From Candidatus Parcubacteria bacterium (GTDB lineage: Bacteria > Patescibacteriota > Minisyncoccia > Phycocordibacterales > UBA2100): a stretch of 57,289 nucleotides of DNA. Below the pieces are notes generated by a model. That model saw nothing but the letters and a program-made list of their open reading frames with translations. It was not told where the DNA came from and ran no database searches. Positions within the stretch are counted from its first letter, which is position 1; each line of letters starts with the position of its first letter. Location of the stretch: the NCBI GenBank assembly GCA_003599175.1, contig QZIY01000013.1, positions 1 to 57,289 of the forward strand, given 5' to 3'. Both the position numbers and the translations under genes were made by a program. This document shows positions 26,343 to 31,539 of this stretch, in pieces.

Positions 26343-26936
26343 ATGTTAGTCGTAGACGTAGAGGCCTCCGGAACAGACTATTCGAAACACTCGATCGTAT
26401 CAGTGGGTGCGCTCGATTTTGCCAATCCGCAGAATCGTTTTTATGAGGAATGCCGGATTTGGGACGGGGCTCATATCATGGATGAGGCGCTCAAGGTCAA
26501 TGGTTTTACCAAAGAGGAGATCACGGATCCCAAGAAGCAATCCGAAGCCGATCTCGTGCATGGATTTCTCGCATGGGCCGATAAGCTCGAGGAGCGCACG
26601 CTTGCCGGGCAGAATGTCTCTTTCGATCGCGACTTTTTGAAGCACGCAGCGGAGAGGGCAGGGCACACCGACTGGCCTTTTGCCTATCGCACCATCGACA
26701 TCCATTCGCTTGCGTACATGCACATGGTCAATCGGGGCCTGCAGATCCCTGTCGTCCATCGCCGATCGGCACTCGATCTCGATGCCATTATGAAATACTG
26801 CGGCATTCCGGAAGAGCCAATGCCACACAATGCGCTCACCGGCGCGCTCTCGCACGCCGAAGTCATTTCGAGACTCCTCTTTGGCCGCAAACTCCTGCCC
26901 GAATTCACCGACTTCCCGATTCCTTGGAAAGCATAA
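26343..26936 (+). CDS. DnaQ-like 3'-5' exonuclease (DEDDh)
   Basis: ExoI VVDVEASG, ExoII NVSFDRDFL, ExoIII H..LTGALSHAEV. Confidence 0.8.
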   Translation: MLVVDVEASGTDYSKHSIVSVGALDFANPQNRFYEECRIWDGAHIMDEALKVNGFTKEEITDPKKQSEADLVHGFLAWADKLEERTLAGQNVSFDRDFLKHAAERAGHTDWPFAYRTIDIHSLAYMHMVNRGLQIPVVHRRSALDLDAIMKYCGIPEEPMPHNALTGALSHAEVISRLLFGRKLLPEFTDFPIPWKA

Positions 26937-27138
26937 GGTTGAAAAACAAAAAGCTGCGCGATTCTTCCGTCAAAGAATTCGCGCAGCAAGCGCGGCACGC
27001 CCGCGCAAGAACTTCAACGGACTCGCACTTCCTGGGGGTGTCGGGGGTGGAAGTGCTATTGCCGGGACGGGTTTCAATGCTAGCAATTGAATATAAAGAT
27101 CGAGTTAAATTTTTATGTCGCCTTTATGCTACGCTCTA

Positions 27139-27394
27139 CCTGTCTCCCCGCGGAGATCTCCAATGCGCTTCTGCCCGTAGGGTAGGGGGACGGCATCGGA
27201 GTCTGTAGCAGCAACGGAGGCAGCAATGCCGATCGCTTGCATCGGTCAGGTCGAAAAGCGCCACGAGCCGTGCGCATCGACCGAGACCACCATCGCCCTC
27301 TGGCCAGAGCTCTAAGCACCATCCCGCATTGAGCATCTGAGCAAGAGGAAGGCCGGCACCTTACCGCCAATTGGGTACCGGCCCTCTCTTTTGC
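27139..27394 (+). ncRNA. candidate structured RNA of unknown class with its own terminator
   Basis: GC-rich ~255-nt non-coding block preceded by an AT-rich promoter-like stretch (27080-27130). Strong hairpin at 27244-27288. Ends in GGCCGGCACC-N13-GGTACCGGCC followed by CTCTCTTTTG. No credible ORF. Confidence 0.4.
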
Positions 27395-27425
27395 TGCGAT
27401 CGAAAACGCCTCCTTGTGGGGTCTA

Positions 27426-28394
27426 ATGAAGAGCGTAGAATGGCGGGGCATGGCGATTACAATAGAACAGCTGGATAATAGATATCGAGAGAAAAATGCC
27501 ACGATCATTCTTGGGGAAAATATTTTATTGAAATTTGTTCCGGAAAAATCAGTATTTGATCGAAATGACTCTCTTCGAGAATTAATCAGTACGCAAAATT
27601 TTCTTCTGGGTGAAGGTCCTAAAAACATTGGCCAAATGGTCAATCTGTCGAACAGGATCAAAAAAAGACTTGAGCATCATATTCAGTCCCAGGAACTCGC
27701 AGGTTCCTTTTTAAAGAAAGACAGATCAGGCAAGCCTGATATCGGTTTTTTTGAAAGACATATTAAACCCGACTTGATCGCGGGGGTAAAAAAACTTGAA
27801 GACTTGAGCCAGGCCGTGGATAAGTTAGAGGATTCTTTCCCACGTCGTCTTGGTCGCTCGGCGCCACATTATTTTTGTGATAACTGTATCGCCTATATCG
27901 GAACAGATATAGCACCGAGCAAATGCACGATTTGTGGAAGTGCTATAAATATTCATAGCGCTGTTCGCAATTTGCGATACTTAGAGCCAGATGTCTTTGA
28001 TTATCTCGGCGGGAAATGGTTTGAGGATTACATCGGAAAGATCTTCGAGTCCAATGGATGGAAGGTTTGGAAGCATGGATCAGTTATGGGGACTTCAGGT
28101 GAAAAGCATCCAATCGACGTATTAGCTGCAAACAATAAGACTGCAAACGTTCTAGTTGCGGAATGCAAAATCTCCCAGGATAGTTTTGCTGACAAAGACA
28201 TGCTCGCTTTCAAAGCGAGATGGCACGAAATTAGTGCGGCTCACGGTTTTTTCATCGTGCTAGGTAATGATGAGAGAGGTGAACTACAGACAAAAAGAAT
28301 ATTTGCTCGGACACCGGGCCTCTGCTTTCTGAGTGGCATGGGCGGCATGACTGACGCGCAAATCTACGAACAAATAACAAGTGAAATAGCTTAA
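27426..28394 (+). CDS. Zn-ribbon + PD-(D/E)xK (Mrr-cat-like) restriction-endonuclease-fold protein
   Basis: CDNC...CTIC ribbon, then WFEDYIGKIFESNGWKV...HPIDVLAANNKTANVLVAECK (D...ExK). The ORF opens at TTG 27414, with ATGs at 27426 and 27450. AT-rich relative to flanks. Confidence 0.65.
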   Translation: MKSVEWRGMAITIEQLDNRYREKNATIILGENILLKFVPEKSVFDRNDSLRELISTQNFLLGEGPKNIGQMVNLSNRIKKRLEHHIQSQELAGSFLKKDRSGKPDIGFFERHIKPDLIAGVKKLEDLSQAVDKLEDSFPRRLGRSAPHYFCDNCIAYIGTDIAPSKCTICGSAINIHSAVRNLRYLEPDVFDYLGGKWFEDYIGKIFESNGWKVWKHGSVMGTSGEKHPIDVLAANNKTANVLVAECKISQDSFADKDMLAFKARWHEISAAHGFFIVLGNDERGELQTKRIFARTPGLCFLSGMGGMTDAQIYEQITSEIA

Positions 28395-28402
28395 TTTTAT
28401 GA

Positions 28403-28702
28403 ATGTGTAAAAATACCGATATGAATGGCGTTAAGGAACAGTCCGGAATATTGACGTGGACAAGAGACAATATAAAAGACGCACCTGAAACCTGCGGTGT
28501 ACTTGTGCTTAGATTTTCACCAGTTAATGGTGACATTCTTTTAATTGAGGCTAGCGAGAATATCAACATTGCTTTGCGTACCCATTTGGAAAAGGAGGAA
28601 CCCGATTCGAAAATTAAATTTTTTGAATGGTACTCTACGAATAAACGAGAAGAAGCAGAAGCACTAGCAAATTTCTTACTAGAAAAGCATAGCTTGCACT
28701 AG
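28403..28702 (+). CDS. small protein with degenerate GIY-YIG-like layout (99 aa)
   Basis: CGVLVLRFSPVNGDILLIEASENINIALRTHL...EEAEALANFLLEKH mirrors GVY..-..YIG...L..R...H...E..LI, but the Tyr residues are replaced. 8-nt gap after the nuclease gene. Confidence 0.4.
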   Translation: MCKNTDMNGVKEQSGILTWTRDNIKDAPETCGVLVLRFSPVNGDILLIEASENINIALRTHLEKEEPDSKIKFFEWYSTNKREEAEALANFLLEKHSLH

Positions 28703-29223
28703 TCGGAAAAGCTAACTTCCCCGTGCGCACCAAAAGAGGGGAGCGAGTGAGCTTGGATTGCAATCGCCGAAATATTTTTGTCGTGGAAATTTTATGGCAG
28801 ATAGTTTGAGGGGAGAGAGGAGAAAAGTTTTAATTGGACAGGTGTTGACATACCTGTGGATAACTATGGTGTAATACTAGGGAGGGCGAGAACTTCTTCA
28901 TTTACGTAGCGCGCACAATATATCTTTTGCGACATTACTCTATCTACAAAGGGGCTTTGCTAAGCCTCAGCCACGGCCCGCGTGAGCCTCTAGGAGCCTC
29001 TCCAGTGCCCGCCTCCCATGCCTTGCGTATCATTCATCCCCCACTCATATCTCCGATTTCTACGGCGGCGGTTCCCTGAATCTTCTAATCCGATATTTCT
29101 TCCGAGCCCTGGGTATTTCCGATTAGCGACTCCCCCGCCTGTCTCAAATTTTTGAATCATTGGGGAAGTCACGAGATTTGTTTTTTTGGAATTTTCACCG
29201 ATTTAAATGCGATATAGGCTTCG

Positions 29224-29709
29224 TTAATCTTTCGAGTCGATACTTTGGCCGTTCAAAATTTCTCTAAATTGCTCCAGCGGTATCGTTCTTTCCTCTAACC
29301 AGATTGCCAAATCATCTACAGCTTTTTCTATTGGTAATTCTGTTTGAGCGAGCCACAGAGCTTTGTCACGTAATTCACCGCGACCAGCAACGACCGCTAC
29401 ATTGTTTATGTATAGAAAAACGATTGTGGCAGCAACGGAAAGCCTTTTGTTCCCGTTACCAAACGCGTGATTTCTATTAAAGGCATAAAACGTGATGGCG
29501 GCTTTTTTGTAGATTCCCGAATAAAGTTCCTGACCAAAGACTGCCTGTCTCGGCAAATTCAAACAAGAATCAAGTTTCGCTTGATCGTGGTCCTCATATA
29601 AGCCCATCGGCTCCTCCTCTTGGAAGAGCCGAGATGCTATATCGTGGCAAAGATCCTTCAGGATCTCTTTGTCGAGATAATTAACGGGAGAATCGTTCTC
29701 CTTTATCAT
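29224..29709 (-). CDS. doc: Doc (death-on-curing) family Fic-fold toxin
   Basis: Doc-type motif HAFGNGNKR. Confidence 0.9.
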   Translation of the reverse strand: MIKENDSPVNYLDKEILKDLCHDIASRLFQEEEPMGLYEDHDQAKLDSCLNLPRQAVFGQELYSGIYKKAAITFYAFNRNHAFGNGNKRLSVAATIVFLYINNVAVVAGRGELRDKALWLAQTELPIEKAVDDLAIWLEERTIPLEQFREILNGQSIDSKD

Positions 29710-29836
29710 AGCGGGCTAGATCTTTGAGCGTTTCGCCGTACTGACGAATAGCAAAATCGATACCAGCTTTTGCTTTCTGGTCTTTAGTTACAAAGTTGCC
29801 CGTTTTGCGGCTTTTCCTGAACATTCTCCAAAACAT
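29681..29836 (-). CDS. putative antitoxin of doc (51 aa)
   Basis: Small basic ORF (MFWRMFRKSRKTGNFVTKDQKAKAGIDFAIRQYGETLKDLARYDKGERFSR) overlapping the doc start by 29 nt. TATAAT lies 6 nt upstream of its ATG. Direct repeat CGTCTGTCA x2 lies upstream. Family not recognised. Confidence 0.45.
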   Translation of the reverse strand: MFWRMFRKSRKTGNFVTKDQKAKAGIDFAIRQYGETLKDLARYDKGERFSR

Positions 29837-29974
29837 ATACAAATTATAGCATATTCGTGTTCTGACAGACGTATGCTGTTGACAGACGATTCCCCAATTA
29901 CGTCGCAAAATATTTAAAATATTTCCCGACATAACTCTATAGCAGGGTAGGTCCCCTACTCGGTACAATGCGGT

Positions 29975-30631
29975 ATGCGATATGGCGACCGGATCAAGAA
30001 GCTTCTGACTCCTCTTGAGCACGCGATTTTTAAGAAGCTCAATACGCCGCAGAAGATTCAGGATTATTTGGATCGCCTCCCAATCAATTTTGAGATGGAC
30101 GGGGAGACATACCTCTCCCCTCGCCTCGTGATGAGGCAGGGGACGGCGCATTGCTTTGAAGGCGCGGTATTTGCAGCGACTGCACTCGCCTATCATGGCG
30201 AGCGGCCGCTCTTACTCGATCTGAAGACGAAGAAGCCGGATGTGGATCATGTCGTCGCACTCTTCAAGCAAAACGGCTACTGGGGCTCGATTAGCAAAAC
30301 CAATCGCAATATTTTGCGCTGGCGCGATCCGGTCTACACATCGGTGCGCGAGCTCGCACTTACCTATTTTAACGAATATTTTTACGACGACGGCCGCAAA
30401 ACGCTCGTCTCCTATTCGAGGCCCTTCGACCTCTCACAATTTCGCCCGGAAGAATGGGTGATTGCGGAAGAGGATTTGGATGATATCGCCCTTCGGCTCG
30501 ATAAGAGCCCTCACTTCCCTATCGTGCCCGCCAAAAATAAAAAGCTTTTGCGGAAGGCATCGAAGGTAGAGATCGATGCGATGAAAATCGTCGAGTGGAA
30601 GGTGCCCAAGGGGTATAAGGCGGGTATTTAG
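29975..30631 (+). CDS. hypothetical protein, possible papain/transglutaminase-like Cys-His fold
   Basis: GTAHCFEGAVFAATALAYHG ... DVDHVVALF ... suggests a Cys/His pair. No firm family call. Confidence 0.5.
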   Translation: MRYGDRIKKLLTPLEHAIFKKLNTPQKIQDYLDRLPINFEMDGETYLSPRLVMRQGTAHCFEGAVFAATALAYHGERPLLLDLKTKKPDVDHVVALFKQNGYWGSISKTNRNILRWRDPVYTSVRELALTYFNEYFYDDGRKTLVSYSRPFDLSQFRPEEWVIAEEDLDDIALRLDKSPHFPIVPAKNKKLLRKASKVEIDAMKIVEWKVPKGYKAGI

Positions 30632-30651
30632 CATTGCGGTATAATTGGCGT

Positions 30652-31539
30652 ATGCAACAACAGAAGTCTCATGAGACAGTCGTCATTTCGCTCTCCATTG
30701 CGCTCGCTGCCCTTACAGTAGCCGTAGCCATTGGTGCGTGGATGGGCTATGAGCGCTTTATGGCACTCTCAATGCGTGTGGAGACACTCGAAGCCGAGGT
30801 GGCTACGACGACCGATCGCTTGGCTCGCGGCCTCGAGGAGACGCATAGCACGCTCGCGAGTGCACTCGAAGAAGAGCAAGAGCGATCGGAAAAATTGCAG
30901 ACGCAATTTGGCACGATTTCGGATAGCGTTGATGTTTTGGAAAAATTGAGCACACTCGATGGTCAGCTTCTCAAAAAATATTCCAAAGTCTACTTCCTCA
31001 ATGAAAACTACATGCCCGAGCAGCTCTCGGTCATCCCCAAAGAATATACATACAATGAAGAGCGCGAGTATTCTGTAGCTTCTCCCATTCTCCGCGATCT
31101 CACCAACATGCTCCGCGCCGCAAAACGCGCGGGGATCGAGATCTATGTCGCTTCCGCGTACCGCTCTTTTGGCGAGCAAGGCGCACTCAAGGGTCAGTAT
31201 TCTATGACGTATGGCGAAGGTAGTGCAGGACAATTTTCAGCAGATCAGGGCTATTCCGAACACCAGTTGGGCACGACGCTCGATTTCACCACGACGGGTC
31301 TTGGTGGCGGGCTTGCGGGTTTCGGTAACACACCGGCCTTTGAGTGGCTCCAGGAAAACGCATACAAATACGGCTTCATTCTCTCGTATCCCGAGGGCAA
31401 TCAGTACTACATGTATGAGCCGTGGCATTGGCGATTTGTCGGTGAGGACTTGGCCGACGATCTCCACGATGAAGGCATGAACTTCTACGACATGGATCAG
31501 CGTGAGCTTGATAAGTATCTGGCGACCATCTTCGATTAA
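30652..31539 (+). CDS. VanY/M15B D-alanyl-D-alanine carboxypeptidase, membrane anchored
   Basis: SEHQLGTTLDF and EPWHWRFVG zinc-ligand motifs. TATAAT (30640-30645) lies 6 nt before the ATG at 30652. Confidence 0.85.
   Translation: MQQQKSHETVVISLSIALAALTVAVAIGAWMGYERFMALSMRVETLEAEVATTTDRLARGLEETHSTLASALEEEQERSEKLQTQFGTISDSVDVLEKLSTLDGQLLKKYSKVYFLNENYMPEQLSVIPKEYTYNEEREYSVASPILRDLTNMLRAAKRAGIEIYVASAYRSFGEQGALKGQYSMTYGEGSAGQFSADQGYSEHQLGTTLDFTTTGLGGGLAGFGNTPAFEWLQENAYKYGFILSYPEGNQYYMYEPWHWRFVGEDLADDLHDEGMNFYDMDQRELDKYLATIFD

Follow-up and report, generated by a model that had tools for sequence, protein, structure and literature searches.

A nuclease gene and a gene for a GIY-YIG-fold pseudo-nuclease as a candidate two-gene defence or toxin-immunity module of Patescibacteria

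Type III CRISPR and related signalling systems have ancillary nucleases such as Can2, Card1 and Cdn1, in which a CARF domain is joined to a PD-(D/E)xK nuclease domain. Toxin-first operons, in which the gene for the toxic protein precedes that for its small antidote, are represented by higBA and by the colicin E DNase with its Im protein. The ultra-small bacteria of the Candidate Phyla Radiation (CPR, Patescibacteria) make up a large share of bacterial diversity, and Burstein and co-workers reportedly described in 2016 that CRISPR-Cas is nearly absent from them and that few defence systems have been recognised. Here, a pair of genes is characterized that was found in the CPR-type genome of a Candidatus Parcubacteria bacterium (assembly GCA_003599175.1, 0.92 Mb in 40 contigs), on contig QZIY01000013.1, of which the whole stretch of 57,289 nucleotides was analysed and is called the window below. 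From its sequence, the product of the first gene is predicted to be a zinc-ribbon PD-(D/E)xK nuclease with an intact catalytic triad, and according to a structure model its partner is a GIY-YIG-fold pseudo-nuclease of 90-94 amino acids (aa) in the family, which is devoid of the catalytic residues.

A first-pass annotation of the window, made from the letters alone, had described two plus-strand open reading frames (ORFs) of 326 and 99 aa separated by 8 nucleotides (nt). The module was recovered as described, with longest open forms at 27414-28394 and 28403-28702, while both starts and the sizes derived from them had to be revised. An exhaustive HMMER search of 1.84 billion protein representatives yielded 87 relatives of the nuclease at E<=1e-3 and 16 at E<=1e-30; about 25 of the 87 were full-length, with 25-39% identity. 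In the family alignment the motif MxITIExLD opens all 25 full-length relatives. Because of the family alignments the starts were shifted to 27450 and 28421, and therefore the proteins have 314 and 93 aa and the spacer comprises 26 nt, not 8. The gene-caller products in the protein database, with 314 and 93 aa, are similar to the family-based starts. Together both genes occupy 1.25 kb. Residues of the nuclease are numbered according to the 314-aa form, and the features of the pair are as follows.

27450-28394, plus strand: nuclease gene, 314 aa, start codon ATG at 27450 (MAITIEQLD...); also open from TTG at 27414 (326-aa form)
28395-28420, plus strand: spacer of 26 nt, with the extended -10-like element TGTAAAAAT at 28406-28414, 6 nt 5' of the partner ATG
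28421-28702, plus strand: partner gene, 93 aa, start codon ATG at 28421; also open from ATG at 28403 (99-aa form)
27450-27614, plus strand: N-terminal alpha/beta domain of the nuclease, residues 1-55, with modelled strands 2-4, 17-21 and 25-31 and short helices
27615-27833, plus strand: antiparallel two-helix hairpin, residues 56-128, with modelled helices 56-89 and 98-128
27855-27980, plus strand: zinc ribbon with the four cysteines C143, C146, C159 and C162 and modelled short strands within 136-151 and 172-177
27981-28391, plus strand: PD-(D/E)xK domain of the Mrr/Can2/AF1548 type, residues 178-314, assigned by Pfam, profile search and Foldseek
28116-28118, 28161-28163 and 28167-28169, plus strand: codons of the catalytic residues D223, E238 and K240

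The nuclease was modelled with AlphaFold2 from an alignment of nine sequences (predicted local distance difference test, pLDDT, 84; predicted template modelling score, pTM, 0.82). The model has the restriction-endonuclease fold, with a helix at 180-201, strands at 205-213, 219-228 and 233-240, a second helix at 248-261 and a further strand at 265-270. In a Foldseek comparison with the PDB the top matches were Cdn1, Can2 and Card1, followed by VC1899 and AF1548 (probability 1.0); MspJI, AspBHI, EcoO109I, EcoT38I and Bax1 were ranked lower and were matched at the nuclease core only. A profile search of PDB sequences led to AF1548 (1y88, E 1.5e-4) and Can2 (7bdv, E 1.5e-3), and a first helix with GxWFExY, a strand with ExD and an ECK motif are common to these two proteins and the nuclease. 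Card1 and Cdn1 have the same type of nuclease domain, and across this group, Can2 and AF1548 included, the last motif can be written ECK(T). The earlier assignment of an Mrr-cat-like core was upheld, since Pfam Mrr_cat (PF04471) was matched over residues 199-284 of the 326-aa form, marginally, with 21.9 bits versus a gathering threshold of 21, and HxxD...ECK is conserved. C143, C146, C159, W190, Y194, G214, G217, D223, E238, C239 and K240 were invariant in an alignment of 25 relatives, C162 (at least 90%) and H220 were nearly so, and D223, E238 and K240 were unchanged also in alignments of nine and eight sequences. In BFVD only generic restriction-endonuclease domains were matched, and a search of PHROGs gave nothing meaningful.

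The CxxC...CxxC ribbon noted in the first-pass annotation stood as well, as all four cysteines were invariant or nearly so in the 25 relatives; over residues 131-179 it had a weak profile match to RING/zinc-finger chains. The N-terminal stretch of about 150 residues had been called unrecognised and helical. It is indeed unrecognised, because neither the N-terminal domain nor the hairpin had a match in Pfam, the PDB or BFVD, but it is not purely helical and consists of the 55-aa alpha/beta domain and the two-helix hairpin. A hidden Markov model of the N-terminal domain matched about 50 of the 87 relatives. Conservation was quantified in ten distinct lineages with enough sequence, which comprised Parcubacteria, Saccharibacteria and metagenomes. 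The mean pairwise identity was 0.50 both for the N-terminal domain and for the nuclease domain, 0.40 for the zinc ribbon and 0.26 for the hairpin, which is the least conserved part and differs in length across the family. A CARF domain at the N-terminus was considered and rejected, because the region is composed of a three-strand domain of 55 aa and a two-helix hairpin, and the PDB and PADLOC matches are mainly on the ribbon and the nuclease.

These features separate the protein from its closest described relatives. In the absence of a CARF domain it is not a CARF nuclease. In contrast to Can2, Card1 and Cdn1 it has the 55-aa domain, the hairpin and the ribbon instead, it is accompanied by a protein partner rather than by a cyclic-oligoadenylate signal, and no cyclase or CRISPR genes are present near the pair. 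With Mrr it has the D...ExK motif in common, but it lacks the N-terminal winged-helix domain of Mrr, which binds DNA or modifications, and it differs in its architecture and in its obligate small partner.

The similarity of the small ORF to GIY-YIG nucleases, which had been suggested from the layout of its residues, was supported at the level of the fold and of the profile. An AlphaFold2 model of the partner based on seven sequences (pLDDT 89.6; pTM 0.82) had as its six best PDB matches in Foldseek the GIY-YIG domains of UvrC (1ycz series and 1yd6; probability 1.0; template modelling score 0.65-0.69), with 83-85 aligned columns and 18-22% identity, followed by the GIY-YIG-like N-domain of a plant glutaredoxin. 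Independently of the model, an hhalign comparison of the partner family with eight CPR UvrC N-termini had a probability of 85.7% (E 5.5e-6, 77 columns). Searches of PDB sequences with the single partner sequence and with a profile gave noise only, so that the link to GIY-YIG came from the structure model and hhalign. The UvrC equivalog model matched residues 18-72 of the 99-aa ORF at E 0.0046. The best Pfam match of the partner was DUF7508 (PF24348), with 20.1 bits for the 99-aa ORF and 20.3 bits for the 93-aa form versus a cut-off of 26; three of seven family members matched it at E<=1 (best E 4.6e-5), all below the cut-off, and membership is thus not established. The DUF7508 model itself also matches the N-termini of UvrC in many CPR genomes, and because of this cross-matching to GIY-YIG domains DUF7508 is probably situated in the GIY-YIG neighbourhood. 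In the literature on DUF7508 or inactive GIY-YIG partners nothing relevant was found; SNIPE and MMSYN1_0777 are unrelated cases.

In fold and size the partner corresponds to the N-terminal domain of UvrC, with which it also shares the motif register APxxxGV(Y/F/L) and I(Y/x)I(G/E)xS, but it differs in being a free-standing, acidic protein and in its residues at the active site. The catalytic residues of UvrC and I-TevI were reportedly described by Truglio and co-workers in 2005. The replacement of the eponymous tyrosines noticed in the first-pass annotation was found to apply to most lineages: the first (GIY) position is occupied by L, F, F, F, F, Y, S, Y, F and L in the ten lineages (Tyr in 2/10), and the second (YIG) position by L, S, F, L, N, S, H, F, Y and L (Tyr in 1/10). 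The catalytic arginine (equivalent to R39 of UvrC) is replaced throughout, by A, D, A, D, D, D, S, E, D and D. At the metal-binding glutamate (equivalent to E76) hhalign places the LE(N)NL segment of UvrC opposite a gap; a manual alignment yielded A, A, A, S, K, C, E, E, K and K at this position, that is, Glu in 2/10. The isoelectric point of the partner is 4.7-5.8 in 10/10 lineages, while eight UvrC GIY-YIG domains have values of 7.9-9.9. This acidity, set against the basic to near-neutral UvrC domains, argues for binding of protein rather than of DNA. The partner has conserved residues of its own, namely the N-terminal strand KSGI-x-x-W, N17, G26, R31, P34 and FF(D/E)WY, and from these sequence comparisons it is concluded that the conserved surface probably serves something other than DNA cleavage.

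The two genes were found together in all ten lineages, with the nuclease gene first, the partner gene second on the same strand and a distance of 26-58 nt; the co-occurrence that the first-pass annotation had proposed to check is thus given. Of the 87 representatives of the family, about a dozen had an accessible genomic context. When the search began with the nuclease, each of the five relatives whose DNA could be retrieved had an ORF of 90-94 aa 29-47 nt downstream on the same strand, and its product is 42-58% identical to the partner in the window. Starting from the partner, a metagenome scan gave five loci, and the nuclease was present wherever the upstream sequence suffices; in the truncated locus L024 the spacer appears, in our reading, to include the 3'-terminal codons of a nuclease gene. 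GTDB genomes were scanned a second time with a nuclease alignment that had been tightened, and this revealed three metagenome-assembled genomes (Parcubacteria GW2011_GWA2_36_10, a Saccharibacteria genome and an unclassified genome), and the partner gene was downstream in all three. The pairwise identities of the two genes were correlated across the ten lineages (r 0.71, Mantel p 2e-4), showing that the genes travel and diverge together. Fusions of partner and nuclease were not found among these proteins, nor was a third recurrent gene beside the pair, including integrase and transposase genes.

More distant relatives of the nuclease exist that do not have a GIY-YIG-like partner (L014, L002 and L022). 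The nuclease of L014 is a solo gene located after a tRNA-Leu gene; it has kept the N-terminal domain, and a ThaI restriction-modification system is 2.5 kb away. In L002 the nuclease gene is followed by that of an AAA_13 ATPase, which matches the PADLOC candidate PDC-S06 (E 2e-90). A different mini-ORF of about 50 aa with a CxxC...CxxC pattern is common to L002 (2483-2653, minus strand) and L022 (2243-2437, plus strand), where it is directly upstream of the nuclease gene and overlaps its start. Different small partners thus seem to have been combined with the nuclease core.

The spacer contains a candidate promoter. A TGnTAnnnT element was present 6-22 nt ahead of the partner ATG in 8 of 11 spacers, a count that does not include the window, and the perfect extended -10 element TGnTATAAT was found in L010, L015 and L016, 6-8 nt ahead of the ATG. 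In the window, TGTAAAAAT occupies the register seen in L010 and L015, with a deviation from TGnTAnnnT at the first base of the hexamer. A consensus promoter scan, which demands a -35 hexamer, did not call the spacer element. We infer from these sequences that the element could be an internal promoter that would give the partner its own, possibly leaderless, transcript. Because an A precedes the TGnTAnnnT motif, most spacers also contain a mini-ORF of two to three codons, and as an alternative the motif may have a role in translational coupling.

The module is rare and patchy, and by its sequence context it appears to be horizontally mobile and so far almost restricted to CPR/Patescibacteria. 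A word-index search with the nuclease retrieved only itself, and that with the partner retrieved itself and one contig of 905 bp; partner patterns gave nothing in GTDB genomes or IMG/VR and the nuclease pattern gave nothing in IMG/VR. The nuclease was absent from 60/60 genomes of the same genus, in which only weak matches to other Mrr-like cores occurred. Among 400 sampled genomes of the phylum, the window's own aside, four had a match, all of them weak or partial; the best was G013 with 24% identity over residues 110-309. Four genomes of the genus have the conserved gene order ctpA-rplI-rpmA-orf121-exonuclease, a gap, and orf218-M23 peptidase, and their gaps of 0.7-1.7 kb contain a NUDIX gene in three of four cases and differing cargo, without nuclease, partner or doc genes. 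The gap of the window is 3.0 kb long and holds the pair and doc instead. This variable hotspot of the genus contains an AT-rich island.

27400-29950, no strand: AT-rich island between the exonuclease gene (26343-26936) and a conserved gene for a protein of 218 aa (orf218, 29975-30631)

The GC content was 0.40-0.44 over 27400-28800 and at most 0.48 up to about 29950, versus 0.50-0.60 in the flanks; it was 0.41 for the pair, 0.43 for the island (27414-29960) and 0.513 on average for the window. The GC dip that had been noticed earlier was therefore real, while the value of 55-62% given for core genes was somewhat high. The comparison was extended to seven paired loci, and in five of them the pair was more AT-rich than its surroundings.

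Window: GC of the pair 0.41, of the rest 0.51
L010: GC of the pair 0.32, of the rest 0.38
L015: GC of the pair 0.28, of the rest 0.40
L016: GC of the pair 0.30, of the rest 0.39
L018: GC of the pair 0.30, of the rest 0.36

The short contigs L021 and L026 showed no AT excess of the pair, and the solo relative in L014 had a GC content of 0.36 versus 0.51. At three loci the nuclease start follows the end of a tRNA gene at a distance of 22-110 nt.

L010, 5903-5974, and L016, 363-434: tRNA-Trp(CCA), ahead of the pair
L014, 5803-5890: tRNA-Leu(GAG), ahead of the solo relative

This adjacency is compatible with integration next to tRNA genes. As the nucleases of L010 and L016 are 74% identical, their tRNA-Trp context represents a single event, and thus there are at most two independent tRNA events. 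On the metagenome contig L026 (1455 bp) perfect inverted repeats of 60 nt (1-60 and 1396-1455) bracket the pair at the very contig ends; they could be terminal inverted repeats or the borders of a segment that inverts, or they could have been produced by the assembly graph. Around the island, att-like direct repeats, target-site duplications and flanking repeats were not found in the window. The overall picture is that of a linked two-gene operon with a patchy and mobile distribution, as in type II toxin-antitoxin and nuclease-immunity pairs.

It is tempting to combine these observations into a mechanism. Gene 1 would encode an active endonuclease composed of the 55-aa N-terminal domain, a variable coiled-coil hairpin, the zinc ribbon and the Can2/Mrr-type PD-(D/E)xK domain. 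The pseudo-nuclease encoded by gene 2 would bind it as a non-catalytic regulatory subunit, most likely holding it inactive in the manner of an immunity protein, and the extended -10 promoter in the spacer would secure the supply of the partner. Once a phage infects the cell or the module is lost, the nuclease would be released and would cleave DNA, resulting in abortive infection or addiction. This toxin-immunity logic is considered to be the best single reading and is given an even chance of being correct, because of the gene order with the nuclease first and a small acidic protein second, the apparent separate promoter, the mobility and patchiness, and the neighbouring Doc toxin. In these points, that is, a nuclease gene closely followed by a gene for a small acidic protein with an apparent promoter of its own, mobile and patchy and next to a toxin gene, the pair resembles toxin-first toxin-antitoxin and nuclease-immunity operons; unlike in those, the partner has no relation in sequence or fold to known antitoxin or immunity families, and it is unusually conserved. 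The physical interaction, an inhibition rather than an activation, the promoter, DNA as the substrate and a role in defence or addiction would all be parts of this proposal. The role in defence is suggested by the mobility, the patchy distribution and modest neighbourhood evidence, which comprises Doc in the window, an IS1595 transposase and an AriA/OLD-like AAA_15 ATPase beside the pair of L061, DUF3800 beside that of L018, and PDC-S06 and the ThaI restriction-modification system near distant relatives.

Several observations weigh against this toxin-immunity logic. The mean identity of the partner, 0.46, is at least as high as that of the nuclease, 0.43, which is unusual for antitoxins and immunity proteins and would equally fit a sensor or activator. 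Partner-less relatives keep the N-terminal domain (L014), and therefore the nuclease alone is not necessarily lethal. The element TGTAAAAAT in the window's own spacer is degenerate. PADLOC-DB v2.0.0 has no system-specific model for either protein; weak matches of the nuclease core to CARF_PDDEXK/Csx1 models were obtained (E 4e-6 to 4e-3), and nothing for the partner. No relative was found in IMG/VR, and therefore any link to phages is hypothetical. Support for defence from the neighbourhood is thin, and several pairs are located among housekeeping genes, namely between ruvB and yebC-ruvC in L062 and amid secE-nusG-rplK-tRNA-Trp in L010 and L016.

The main rival is that the partner activates instead of inhibits. 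It would recognise a phage protein, a DNA structure or a nucleotide and then switch on the nuclease, as the CARF domain does with cyclic tetra-adenylate (cA4) in Can2 and Card1. This is possible, though we hold it with considerable reserve. The nuclease domain is closest to the signal-activated Can2, Card1 and Cdn1, the high conservation of the partner includes an invariant aromatic-rich surface (W13, F68, W70, Y71) and R31 after strand 1 that would suit a ligand or an interface, and the existence of partner-less relatives makes the nuclease appear self-restrained. Against it, the partner is acidic and no longer has the basic character with which GIY-YIG domains bind DNA, no cyclase or other generator of a signal is present, and a separate promoter giving an excess of the partner would fit an antidote better than a trigger. 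The first-pass annotation had offered, besides an abortive-infection-type effector, a modification-dependent nuclease of type IV. More generally, the pair could be a solitary type IV or a type II-like restriction enzyme with the small protein as specificity or controller subunit, and this would agree with the Mrr_cat assignment, the Foldseek matches to MspJI, AspBHI, EcoO109I and EcoT38I, a zinc ribbon that could contact DNA, and the island, in which the ORF list and Pfam revealed no methyltransferase, just as had been stated earlier. The type IV interpretation has no positive support, however: in the N-terminal 130 residues Pfam, the profile search of the PDB and Foldseek detected no modification-reading domain (SRA, PUA, YTH, DUF3427, the winged helix of Mrr or another). 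The resemblance to MspJI and AspBHI and to the other restriction enzymes is confined to the generic catalytic core, and an acidic protein would be a poor DNA-specificity subunit, so that a restriction enzyme of either type is regarded as unlikely.

It is also improbable that the pair is a mobile cassette that is selfish only, such as a nuclease of the homing type or one borne on a transposon, accompanied by a helper and of no benefit to the host. Such a cassette could explain the AT excess in most loci, the positions directly after tRNA genes in L010, L016 and L014, the transposase adjoining the pair of L061, the inverted repeats of L026 and the variable hotspot in the window. However, the conserved unit is devoid of an integrase or transposase, the island is without target-site duplications or flanking repeats, the insertion sites differ among the lineages and the tRNA-Trp context counts as one event, and the repeats of L026, lying exactly at contig ends, may have come from the assembly graph. 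Least credible, and very improbable, is a housekeeping factor of DNA repair or recombination in CPR bacteria, consisting of a structure-specific nuclease and an accessory subunit derived from UvrC. The N-terminal domains of UvrC are the nearest relatives of the partner and the pair of L062 has ruv genes on both sides, but the absence from all 60 genomes of the genus and of any further full-length relative from the 400 genomes of the phylum, the foreign composition, the varying location, and the loss of the catalytic and basic residues of the partner speak against it.

The inhibitor and the sensor versions have in common that a dead GIY-YIG domain would be the protein that switches a Can2-like nuclease, as its inhibitor or as a sensor of infection, with the N-terminal domain and the ribbon of the nuclease in the place of the CARF sensor. 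That the pair is an undescribed, CPR-specific immune or addiction module of this kind is proposed tentatively, at somewhat less than an even chance. A named system corresponding to the pair was not found in PADLOC v2, Pfam, the PDB or the literature searched. None of the three outcomes that the first-pass annotation had named as refuting it was obtained, namely genes that do not co-occur elsewhere, a small ORF unrelated to nucleases, or a match of the pair to an already named system. The module is new in its dead GIY-YIG partner, in the N-terminal domain and in its restriction to CPR, and it belongs to a known kind in being a two-gene, nuclease-based candidate for defence or toxin immunity. 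The structural part of the first-pass annotation thus held on every point tested, and the defence function proposed there is putative. If the proposal is true, it would add to the immune or addiction repertoire of CPR lineages. It would also show clearly that a pseudo-enzyme with a dead GIY-YIG fold can be put to new use as the regulatory subunit of an unrelated nuclease, and a Can2-type effector domain would be under a control other than that by cyclic oligoadenylates, as a protein-regulated counterpart of the CARF nucleases.

The remainder of the island contains a second cassette on the minus strand, which is context and not part of the pair.

29224-29709, minus strand: gene for a Doc/Fic toxin (Pfam Fic, E 6.4e-14; TIGR01550, 37.7 bits versus a cut-off of 38.65; PADLOC PDC-S23, E 9e-13)
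29684-29836, minus strand: candidate Doc antitoxin, an ORF of 51 aa overlapping the doc start, without a Pfam match

Because the 51-aa ORF has no Pfam match, the neighbouring doc toxin-antitoxin module of the first-pass annotation was borne out on the toxin side only.

Upstream of the pair, between the exonuclease gene and the island, there is a GC-rich non-coding block (27000-27400), of which the first-pass annotation had taken note and which ends in a GC hairpin and a T-run just 5' of the nuclease gene. A decayed copy of the NUDIX gene, which has the same position in other genomes of the genus, was considered for this block and rejected, and a search of Rfam over 26900-29300 remained without a match up to E<=1. 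At 28912-28935 the window has a palindrome, GTCGCA-N12-TGCGAC (in this case GCGCGCACAATATATCTTTTGCGAC), which is conserved at the same gap between the exonuclease gene and orf218 in three genomes of the genus (L039, L041 and L043); a degenerate inverted copy is situated beyond the doc cassette, at 29902-29916. The palindrome may act in the hotspot as an operator or as a site of recombination. Behind the island, between orf218 and the M23 peptidase gene, a gene for a VanY-type D-Ala-D-Ala carboxypeptidase (30634-31539; Pfam E 5e-33) is missing from the syntenic blocks of the genus that were examined (L039-L043), and it is probably another strain-specific insertion.

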